DNA of 36,692 bases from Corallococcus sp. CA047B (GTDB taxonomy: Bacteria; Myxococcota; Myxococcia; Myxococcales; Myxococcaceae), in the NCBI RefSeq assembly GCF_003612065.1, contig NZ_RAWD01000050.1:1-36692 (forward strand), written 5' to 3'. Position numbers and translations under genes: made by a program. Below, piece by piece: positions 34,886 to 36,692 of the stretch. Every line of letters begins with the position of its first letter. The stretch's first letter is position 1. The notes beneath the pieces were generated by a model. It was not told the DNA's origin and did not search any database. It saw only the letters and a program-made list of their open reading frames with translations.

Positions 34886-35321
34886 GGTGTTATTGCCTCA
34901 AAGAAAGAGGGGTTTGCTGCGGCCCGTGTTCCTTGTCGAGCGCTCCAGTGCTCCTGGCCGGGCGATCGACAGAAATACGCCCCGAGCCCGCGGGGCACCA
35001 GGGACTGAAATTGAATGGGCTTTAAAGGAGAGATTTAAAATGGGGTGCGCCCTGCGGGCATTGAAGAGGACACCGACGCGGCGATGCTTCACTTCGCACT
35101 GGGCCAGAGCGCGAGGGCAAGTACGAGATCGCGCCGCGGGTCGTTCTCGTAATCCAGGCTGGCGGTTGAGGTCTGGCAGCATACCAGCGCCCCCCTACCG
35201 TAGGTTCAACTGGTGCGAGGTGGTCGTGCCGAACAGCGCATTGCCGGGTACGCACGAGGTGTGAAGTGTGAGGCAGCGTCGCTCATTGACACTCGCGCGC
35301 TGTTGGGGCCACGCTGCGACG

Positions 35322-36035
35322 ATGACCAATACTCGTCACAGTGGCTCCCTTCGACAAGCGCTGACTGTAGTGGCTGCGTTCGCGCTCATGCTCGGCATCG
35401 GCAACGAGGCTGAGGCTCAACAAACGGGCAAGACGACCCGATACTGGGATTGTGCCAAAGGAAGCGCTTCGTGGACTGGGAAAGCCTCAGTTACCGGTCC
35501 GGTTAAAGCTTGCGCAAGCGATGGCGTCACCGTGCTCAGTCCGAATGCGCAAAGCGGTGCGAATGGTGGTACTGCCTTCATGTGTAACAACAATCAGCCA
35601 TGGGCTGTGAATGATAGTCTGGCGTATGGGGTTGCCGCAGCGTATGTGCCCGGCGGGTCAGAAGCCACTTTGAGCTGCGCCTGTTACGAATTGACATTCA
35701 CCAGCGGGTCCGCGAATGGCAAGAAGATGGTGGTTCAGGTTGTTAATACGGGAGGGCCTTCGGGTGACACCCATTTCGACCTGCTAATCCCTGGCGGGGG
35801 TGTTGGCATGTTCAATGCCTGTACGCCTCAGTGGAATGCTCCCTCCAGTGGTTGGGGTGCCCAGTACGGCGGCATCAGCAGTCGAGATCAATGCTCCATG
35901 CTGCCGTCTCAATTGCGGCCGGGCTGTTATTGGCGATTCGATTGGTTCAAGAACGCGGATAATCCTACCGTGAGCTTCAAGCCGGTCGCCTGTCCCACGG
36001 CAATCACCAATAAAACTGGCTGCATCCGCAAGTAA
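35322..36035 (+). CDS. glycoside hydrolase family 45 endo-beta-1,4-glucanase (eukaryote-like, cf. fungal EGV), secreted
   Basis: Signal peptide [32 protein letters not shown]. The mature part aligns almost residue-for-residue with Humicola EGV: TTRYWDC... vs STRYWDCC (catalytic Asp); [42 protein letters not shown] vs [50 protein letters not shown] vs [22 protein letters not shown] (second catalytic Asp); [36 protein letters not shown]. The gene is ~56% GC with many A/T-ending codons. Confidence 0.85.
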   Translation: [237 protein letters not shown]

Positions 36036-36178
36036 GGTAGGCGAACGTATCGTTGACCCCCTGCGCGGGCCGGGTTCCTTCGGGGACTCGGCCCTTTGCT
36101 TTCTGAGGGAGTGATCGGGCGAATGAGCTAACCCAGAGCCCGTTTGACGCGATCGCCGAGGTTTGATCTCCTCGGGGC

Positions 36179-36316
36179 ATGAGCGAAGGACTTCCCACGC
36201 CGGAGAAGTTGCGGCGGACCATCGTGCGCGCTTTCCACGAGGAGGGCCTCTCGTACGAGCAGATTGCCCACTTGCTGGGCATCGGAGAGGCCACGGTCAG
36301 TGCAATACCTCCATGA
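36179..36316 (+). pseudogene. IS630/Tc1-mariner-family transposase N-terminal fragment (remnant)
   Basis: MSEGLPTPEKLRRTIVRAFHEEGLSYEQIAHLLGIGEATVSAIPP* contains the IS630-family N-terminal HTH (LSYEQIA.LLGIGEATVSR...). It is truncated after 45 aa and the rest of the transposase is absent. Confidence 0.5.
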
Positions 36317-36352
36317 TTCGCGAGTACGGATGGGCGCCCGTGGGCCAACGGT

Positions 36353-36462
36353 GGAGGCGGAGGGAATCGAACCCACGGCCGGCGTTGCGAAAACCCCAGC
36401 AGAATCGCGCCCTTACCTCGCAACCGCCCGGAACCACTCGGATTCGACTTCCCTCCGCGTCC
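36353..36462 (-). ncRNA. tRNA-like element: canonical T-arm plus acceptor-like 3' strand closed by a 12-bp inverted repeat; possible tRNA-like gene or tRNA-derived att remnant
   Basis: The minus strand reads ...GCCGGCCGUGGGUUCGAUUCCCUCCGCCUCCA (T-loop UUCGAUU, stem GUGGG/CCCUC, then CGCCUCC-A). The only partner for the acceptor strand is GGACGCGGAGGG ~95 nt upstream (plus 36451-36462), giving an 11/12-bp closing helix. I could not fold a standard 76-nt cloverleaf. Confidence 0.3.
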
Positions 36463-36692
36463 CGCCCTGTCCCGGTTCGTCCCAACCCGTTCCGCAGCCT
36501 CCTGCGACATACGTGCAACATGGCGCCAGCCCCCGAGCAGTGAGGGCCGGCACCTGGGCGCCGTCCTACCACGGTGATCACGGCGGTTGAGGCGGGTAGC
36601 CGCAGTAGGCGAACCAGGTCGCTGCGTCCTGTGGCCGCACGGTTGCGAGTGCCTCTCGCATCGCTTCGCGGAGGGCCACATGCGTGCGGGCG

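Follow-up and report, generated by a model that had tools for sequence, protein, structure and literature searches.

The minus strand of positions 36352 to 36523 of the DNA analysed here, a stretch of 36,692 nucleotides from Corallococcus sp. CA047B (the window), is probably an attR-type attachment-site relic of integrative islands that target ssrA, the tmRNA gene, in Myxococcaceae. The original prediction for this locus had described an IS630 remnant next to a tRNA-like element closed by a 12-bp inverted repeat and had proposed for the latter an unusual tRNA-like RNA, a tRNA-derived integration scar at the edge of a GH45 island or a MITE-like structure. This interpretation was partly supported: the IS630 remnant and the integration scar hold, and the tRNA-like RNA and the MITE fail. 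The idea of an edge next to the GH45 gene was essentially right, except that the gene copied is that of tmRNA instead of a tRNA and that the feature is not 110 nt long, ending at 36462, but a full arm-plus-core unit of 172 nt that reaches 36523. The coordinates of all features are given in Table 1.

Table 1. Features of the unit and its surroundings in the window (A1, alignment of the repeat family; columns are those of the 172-nt unit)
Feature	Positions	Strand	Basis
GH45 cassette (gene 35322-36035, then probable terminator hairpin)	35105-36128	+	Pfam Glyco_hydro_45, E 3.4e-73
IS630-family copy A	36129-36351	+	TA target at 36129-30; left end ACCCAGAGCCCGTTTGACG from 36131; BLASTN to L038 and L037
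45-codon ORF, N-terminal HTH of IS630 OrfA	36179-36316	+	Pfam and OrfA identity
Probable att unit of 172 nt (P arm and core)	36352-36523	-	84% identical to the family consensus over all 172 nt
Core: T-arm GTGGG TTCGATT CCCTC, acceptor 3' strand CGCCTCC, discriminator A	36352-36376	-	Rfam tmRNA match; 24-mer; ssrA identity
Inverted degenerate core copy inside the arm (columns 61-85)	36439-36463	-	Consensus GGGACGCGGCGGGATATCGACTCCC versus reverse complement of the core GGAGGCGGCGGGAATCGAACCCGC; contains the distal stem arm
GGRAC, repeated five times in the arm at intervals of ~10 nt (columns 31-75)	36449-36493	-	Read from A1; also in the diverged arm of L074
Motif TGTTGCACGTATGTCGCA, outer end of the P arm (columns 4-21)	36503-36520	-	Recurs downstream of the core in other loci
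Cargo-side flank of the unit, shared with Corallococcus interemptor	36524-36566		L050 flank CGCCAACCCCAGGGCCGTGAGGGATGGCACCTGGGGCCGTCCTAGTTCGT matches the window up to the TA
IS630-family copy B	36567-36692, runs off the window	-	TA target at 36567-8; element end CCACGGTGATCA from 36569

The last 25 nt of the unit, its core, mimic the 3' end of a tmRNA. The T-arm GGGTTCGATTCCC (36362-36374) occurs once in the window, in which 0.09 chance matches are expected, and is directly followed on the same minus strand by CTCCGCCTCCA; the T-arm and acceptor 3' strand that had been placed 36 nt from the transposase ORF were thus found in the letters as described. A permissive Rfam scan matched the tmRNA model RF00023 to 36349-36412 of this strand with an E-value of 3.5e-10 and 30 bits, versus a gathering score of 47; the match skips 318 of the 374 model positions and comprises only the two ends of the tRNA-like domain. 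The stretch CGGCCGTGGGTTCGATTCCCTCCGCCTCCACC (36350-36381) has 2 mismatches in 32 nt to real tmRNA 3' ends, and the similarity between the window and tmRNA is confined to these 32 nt. The last 13 nt of the core, its 3' half, are identical to those of genuine myxobacterial ssrA genes (L100 and L010), which are 362 to 364 nt long and encode the tag ANDNVELALAA. Among 34 IMG/VR stretches that contain the 24-mer GGGTTCGATTCCCTCCGCCTCCAC, it forms the 3' end of a tmRNA called by ARAGORN in 18 and of a tRNA-Ala in one; the others are gene-less fragments, frequently at provirus ends.

The window feature itself has neither the tag reading frame nor the pseudoknots of a one-piece tmRNA, its RF00023 score is below threshold, and ARAGORN, run for tRNA and tmRNA genes, called none anywhere in the window, in which only the T-arm and the acceptor 3' strand are canonical. 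The model of the two-piece permuted tmRNA, RF04321, reached 13.2 bits versus 47 in the window (E 2.6). A mini-tmRNA or D-armless tRNA at 36349-36412, running from GGGCGCG to the T-arm, was considered and rejected, as no stem is free of mismatches, ARAGORN makes no call and the 5' part is unlike that of genuine myxobacterial ssrA (GGGGGCGACCTGGCTTCGAC). The arms of the closing inverted repeat, GGAGGCGGAGGG (36353-36364) and CCCTCCGCGTCC (36451-36462), do pair at 11 of 12 positions with one C.C mismatch, at a distance of 86 nt and not of 95 nt as first given. This stem is merely the outer part of a long imperfect palindrome (36349-36462) that folds as a single hairpin, with an MFE of -61.6 kcal/mol and z = -3.85 (z = -4.05 for the opposite strand), and its distal arm is conserved P-arm sequence of the unit. 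Nor is the distal arm the only possible 5' partner of the acceptor strand, since GGGCGCG at 36406-36412 pairs equally well and was the partner picked by cmscan.

The unit is a member of a repeat family. The lead was the segment 36450-36527, which recurs near GH45 genes in Archangium lansingense (L002) and Corallococcus sp. CA053C (L001). A scan of one genome per species with a degenerate pattern made from this segment yielded 60 stretches. All belong to Archangium, Corallococcus, Myxococcus, Hyalangium, Pyxidicoccus, Cystobacter or to MAGs that carry related labels; several copies occur per genome, as many as 7 in one MAG, and the sequences on either side of the copies vary. Conservation extends beyond the scan pattern to the whole unit in almost all stretches, from CCATGTTGCACGTATGTCGCAGG to GCGGGTTCGATTCCCGCCGCCTCCA, and has sharp ends, starting at CCATG and stopping at the discriminator A. 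There are 49 full copies, nearly all of 172 nt; in the alignment of the 45 distinct ones (A1), mean column identity is 92%. The distal stem arm, the palindrome and the C.C mismatch of the window copy are features of the family, the mismatch lying at acceptor position 4 in 44 of the 45 copies. The segment 36450-36527 was also examined as the end (TGT...) of an rve-type IS or of a Tn7-like element, as it follows an rve remnant in L001; this reading was discarded because the segment is the 5' part of the 172-nt unit. A literature search for a described myxobacterial repeat or tRNA-like element returned nothing specific.

The 147 nt that precede the core look like one arm of an attP site. The motif at their outer end is a putative arm-type integrase site and the regularly spaced GGRAC repeats are candidate protein-binding sites; either may be bound by the integrase or by an excision factor. 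Conservation within the unit peaks in GTAAGGGCGCGATTCTGCT (36398-36416, columns 108-126), a block that is located in the loop of the hairpin and resembles a tmRNA 5' end (GGGxxxGAUUCUG). Judged by eye, the 5' part of the unit fits the consensus of a sigma-54 or sigma-70 promoter poorly.

The family is linked to integrases by several junctions. The IMG/VR provirus L099 carries a full unit and, after it, first a terminator hairpin and then a convergent gene for a tyrosine integrase of 402 aa (Pfam Phage_integrase, 5.9e-30), which is 71% identical to the integrase of L100 described below. In L018 and at a second site of L001, L001(b), TCGCACGTATGTCGCA or TTGCACGCATGTCGCA stands 46 nt beyond a core fragment; this is the motif of unit columns 4-21, and in L018 a 71%-identical integrase comes next. 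From this order of core, 46 nt and motif, together with the integrase of L099, it was predicted that a genuine ssrA gene should be found joined to the same arm. Metagenomes were scanned with a pattern consisting of the real tmRNA 3' end, a gap of 40 to 55 nt and the arm motif, and one contig, L100, was found. It carries a tmRNA gene called by ARAGORN with the tag ANDNVELALAA, then 46 nt, TGTTGCACGTATGTCGCA and, on the opposite strand, a gene for a tyrosine integrase of 407 aa (Pfam Phage_integrase, 1.2e-30). The motif is located exactly 46 nt downstream of the core, beside an integrase gene, in three independent loci (L100, L018 and L001), and 144 nt upstream of the core in the window. Slightly diverged forms of it, TGTTGCATATACGTCGCA in L069 and TGTTGCACTTATGTCGCA in L074, lie ~44 to 47 nt downstream of the core. 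A complete junction is found at L074 4426-4800, where an arm with GGGAC repeats, a core, the P' motif and an integrase C-terminus follow one another, and in L069 a core, the P' motif and an integrase remnant are found 1.4 kb upstream of a full unit. For the family, the core is present at the 3' end of an intact target gene beside a tyrosine integrase (L100), and the window feature itself contains the 3' fragment of this target gene.

Orientation was recorded in the 11 loci with more than one copy. All 13 extra copies or core fragments have the same orientation as the reference copy, at distances of 1.3 to 7 kb, for which the chance is ~1e-4; none of the extra core fragments is a tRNA gene according to ARAGORN. 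The T-stems are likewise informative. The family type is GCGGG/CCCGC and that of genuine ssrA (L010 and L100) is GAGGG/CCCTC; hybrids are found as GCGGG/CCCTC in L001(b) and L093 and as GTGGG/CCCTC in the window, where a family-type arm is joined to the host-type 3' half of the T-stem. Such hybrids fit the product expected on the attR side of a crossover in the T-loop, which is where we would place it from these sequences. Another integrase family may use the same site: the genuine myxobacterial-type ssrA of L010 (5200-5330) continues into another kind of island arm, with repeated TGCGTAGTSATTYCGG motifs, which suggests that a second family recombines at the same tmRNA 3' end.

The following course of events is proposed. 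The attP site of the circular island would have three parts: a P arm of ~147 nt that ends on its outer side in TGTTGCACGTATGTCGCA and contains five GGRAC sequences, one every 10 nt; a core of 25 nt that reproduces the tmRNA T-arm and acceptor 3' strand; and a P' arm in which the motif recurs 46 nt from the core and after which the tyrosine integrase gene lies on the opposite strand. The integrase would recombine the island core with the T-loop region of ssrA. At attL, island sequence would then complete the tmRNA gene and be followed by the P' arm and the integrase gene, while at attR, on the far side of the island, the P arm would still be attached to the 3' end that was displaced from the tmRNA gene. 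As islands integrated again and again and integrase genes were lost, small cargo cassettes would accumulate in arrays, with direct repeats of the unit at their borders. Later, at the window locus, a TA located 44 nt beyond the unit on its cargo side took up an IS630 copy, and the opposite, core end came to adjoin the interior of another IS630 copy that already carried a deletion. The copy in the window is presumably inert now. This scheme agrees with what is described for other islands that integrate into tDNAs, in which a tDNA fragment marks one island end, attP is ~250 bp long and holds the target fragment, the tmRNA gene is the most enriched integration target, and classes with a crossover in the T-stem region occur (PMC4383910).

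Several observations count against the attachment-site reading or are not explained by it. The window contains a single unit copy and neither an integrase gene nor an intact ssrA. Only a few copies of the family (L099, L074 and L069) have an integrase or a remnant of one nearby, and a clustering of neighbouring ORFs revealed no recurrent recombinase within 3 kb of the units, the clusters being mostly spurious frames through the unit itself. In complete genomes, copies are found on both strands, so that they are not all part of one array at ssrA. The inverted core copy and the conserved tmRNA-5'-like block in the arm are not required by a simple attP model. Lastly, the sequence after the window core is neither the region downstream of ssrA nor a P' arm, but the interior of IS630 copy A (with an overlap of 2 nt, 36350-36351), and a further rearrangement is therefore needed.

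The unit sits as a relic between two broken IS630-family copies, which were assigned to this family by an HTH N-terminus, a DDE_3 C-terminal piece and TA at both element ends. The 45-codon ORF (MSEGLPTPEKLRRTIVRAFHEEGLSYEQIAHLLGIGEATVSAIPP) matches Pfam HTH_23 with an E-value of 1.1e-5 and also the HTH of Sleeping Beauty transposase, and it is 84 to 91% identical to the N-termini of Corallococcus IS630-type OrfA proteins (142 aa; P0122-P0135), which were retrieved together with DDE_3 relatives by a composite query of three transposase-like translations. By BLASTN, positions 36124-36300 and 36301-36350 correspond to positions 3946-4122 and 4474-4523 of an IS630 region of Corallococcus exercitus (L038), with respect to which copy A has an internal deletion of 351 nt at 36300/36301 and is truncated at 36351. 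The ORF is short because this deletion cuts it, and its original description as the N-terminal HTH of a decayed IS was confirmed. Copy A also aligns with L037 7545-7769 by BLASTN, and its TA and left end are common to L037 and L038. The L037 element, an IS630 copy of Corallococcus exiguus, has the same 351-nt deletion and encodes a protein of 70 aa (P0121); the deleted variant appears to have spread or to have been inherited. Copy B is 98.4% identical to the second element in L038 (6056-5930), with which it shares its TA and end. Translation of its minus strand (36578-36691) gives a transposase C-terminus ending in ALATVRPQDAATWFAYCGYPPQPP and a stop codon, which matches the DDE_3 proteins P0125 and P0128, ending in ALSTVRPQDAAAWFAYCGYPPQPPCSPC. 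The uninterrupted target of copy B is found in C. interemptor (L050). In L038 (3946-6056), two different IS630-family elements, each with a split HTH ORF and DDE_3 ORF, lie side by side and are the closest relatives of copies A and B.

The protein encoded by the GH45 endoglucanase cassette on the other side of copy A is 100% identical to a protein of Corallococcus praedator. The cassette has a GC content of 0.587 versus ~0.69 around it, and its DNA is 88 to 89% identical to L001 9784-10753 and L002 9657-10808, in unrelated surroundings. In A. lansingense (L002), the cassette comes immediately after a partial unit (columns 1-75), at the CCATG end of the latter. In L001, it is preceded by a derivative of the unit that has lost its interior and keeps CATGG and columns 135-172, and a second core is present 6.9 kb away in the same orientation. 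In the window, the homology starts at 35105, the cassette end that abuts the unit in the relatives is missing, and the sole unit is on the other side, behind copy A. These comparisons suggest that the cassette is mobile cargo of the island traffic, possibly of eukaryotic origin; outside the myxobacteria, the most similar GH45 proteins are fungal and animal, with 55 to 67% identity. A G+C-rich hairpin followed by a T-rich run just after the stop codon (36067-36104) is probably the GH45 terminator, and a match of the sobemovirus frameshift element in Rfam to the same positions (20 bits versus 55) was dismissed as merely this hairpin. In two other loci, L047 and L059, the cargo side of the unit holds, from ~100 nt beyond CCATG, lipoprotein genes with a lipobox, one of which encodes a C-terminal DUF6310 domain (E 4.6e-60). 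They resemble SitA-type polymorphic toxin cassettes, and att-bounded cassettes may thus spread kin-discrimination toxins.

It is unlikely that the unit, or its 3' 111 nt, is instead a transcribed tRNA-like or mini-tmRNA-like small RNA, borne by the island and also serving as an integration target. Such an RNA would have an acceptor-like stem of 7 to 13 bp, a perfect T-arm, a long central hairpin and a conserved loop, and the family offers much of this: the consensus has a perfect T-arm (GCGGG TTCGATT CCCGC) and a closing stem of 13 bp, the length is fixed at 172 nt, and conservation is strongest in the tmRNA-5'-like block. The 5' 60 nt of the unit are accounted for by the arm motifs, however, and the intrinsic-terminator hairpins that follow some copies belong to the integrase-side arms. 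The fold score speaks for an RNA, although the opposite strand folds about equally. A U.G in the T-stem of 7 copies pairs only on this strand, whereas the C.C mismatch at acceptor position 4 is shared by nearly the whole family. RNAalifold found no compensated pairs. In both a cloverleaf-like structure and the hairpin, 88 to 90% of the cells are paired, as in shuffled controls; 3 to 4 cells are compensated and broken ones are far more numerous, the pair 70-163 for instance being compensated in 2 cases and broken in 7. This pattern fits the neutral decay of copies. ARAGORN was silent on the window and on 49 family loci, apart from one dubious call, and the Rfam score remains below the gathering score. 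The tRNA-like RNA of the original prediction is unsupported on the same grounds, namely the lack of an ARAGORN call and of covariation and the predominance of broken pairs. A more specific form, in which the unit encodes an island-borne small RNA that mimics the tRNA-like domain of tmRNA with an acceptor stem, a T-arm, a short substitute of helix 2 and the GGGCGCGAUUCUG loop, is quite unlikely. If it were true, this RNA could titrate or exploit SmpB, alanyl-tRNA synthetase or tRNA-processing enzymes, or guide the integrase.

We also regard it as improbable that the unit is a non-autonomous transposable element of the MITE, PATE or SINE kind, mobilized by a transposase encoded elsewhere, with a tmRNA-like end that would be incidental or a target mimic. 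Many copies per genome with sharp ends and variable flanks, and a long hairpin, are what such an element would show, and the window copy abuts transposase remnants, its junction with copy A lying exactly at the end of the unit. Against this, terminal inverted repeats are absent (6 matches in 30 between the two ends) and there is no consistent target-site duplication, 23 of the 49 copies having none and the longest being 4 nt with liberal offsets. The clustering of ORFs within 3 kb revealed no recurrent transposase. The 13 extra copies, all direct repeats, have integrase remnants in some of the intervals between them, and the same core and motif occur at a genuine junction of ssrA and integrase. 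The MITE option of the original prediction, for which the many copies (60 stretches across the family) would have spoken, is lost by the same absence of terminal repeats and duplications and by the arrangement of the copies around integrase remnants. That the feature is a one-off, locally decayed tmRNA or tRNA pseudogene, or a chance palindrome from IS630 activity, as its location between two IS630 remnants and its mismatches in the T-stem (U.U) and acceptor stem (C.C) could suggest, has next to no probability and is effectively refuted by the family alignment, since all 172 nt, including the palindrome and the C.C mismatch, are kept in 60 stretches of six genera.

As an attachment site of tmRNA-targeting islands, the unit is comparable with several known systems. 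Like the displaced tDNA fragments of Islander-type islands (Williams 2002/2003; PMC4383910), it contains a 3' fragment of the tmRNA gene with T-arm and acceptor strand, and its copies share one orientation; tyrosine integrase genes beside the regenerated gene end, a crossover of the T-stem/loop class and tandem accretion are further likenesses. Unlike these islands, the window has no intact ssrA or integrase, and the fragment in the unit carries a 147-nt arm that is conserved across genera and present in unusually many copies, on both strands of some genomes. The arm resembles that of a lambda-type attP site in its length of ~150 nt on one side of the core, in the 18-nt motif present in both arms, 144 nt upstream and 46 nt downstream, and in the tandem repeats that recur every 10 nt from the outer motif towards the core. 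It differs in holding an inverted core-like copy and in folding as one hairpin, and the arm sites are putative here. The cassettes resemble CIMEs, the integrase-less elements flanked by att sites that are accreted next to ICEs, such as ICESt3/CIME of Streptococcus thermophilus. They are 1.3 to 7 kb long and bounded by direct att repeats, their integrase is absent or a remnant, and their cargo is varied (GH45, DUF6310 lipoprotein toxins and kinase-like genes). The host group and the target gene are different. With the tmRNA gene itself (RF00023), the unit shares the T-arm, the acceptor 3' strand, the discriminator A and a GGGxGCGAUUCUG-like stretch, whereas most of the model, the tag reading frame and the pseudoknots are missing. 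Like the MITEs of IS630/Tc1-mariner elements, it is short, non-coding, multi-copy, able to form a hairpin and next to IS630 remnants; it differs from them by its lack of terminal inverted repeats and of a TA duplication at its ends, which are unrelated to the IS630 ends found here (ACCCAG... and CCACGG...).

Site-specific integration at the tmRNA gene would thus explain the odd tRNA-like structure, as its footprint. The unit escapes the standard finders of tRNA and tmRNA genes as well as Rfam, and an island attP arm that is conserved across genera can pass as a repeat family or as an RNA gene. For the very large genomes of the Myxococcaceae, the 172-nt unit can be used as a practical marker of island boundaries and of cassette arrays, the cargo of which includes lipoprotein toxins and kinase-like genes.
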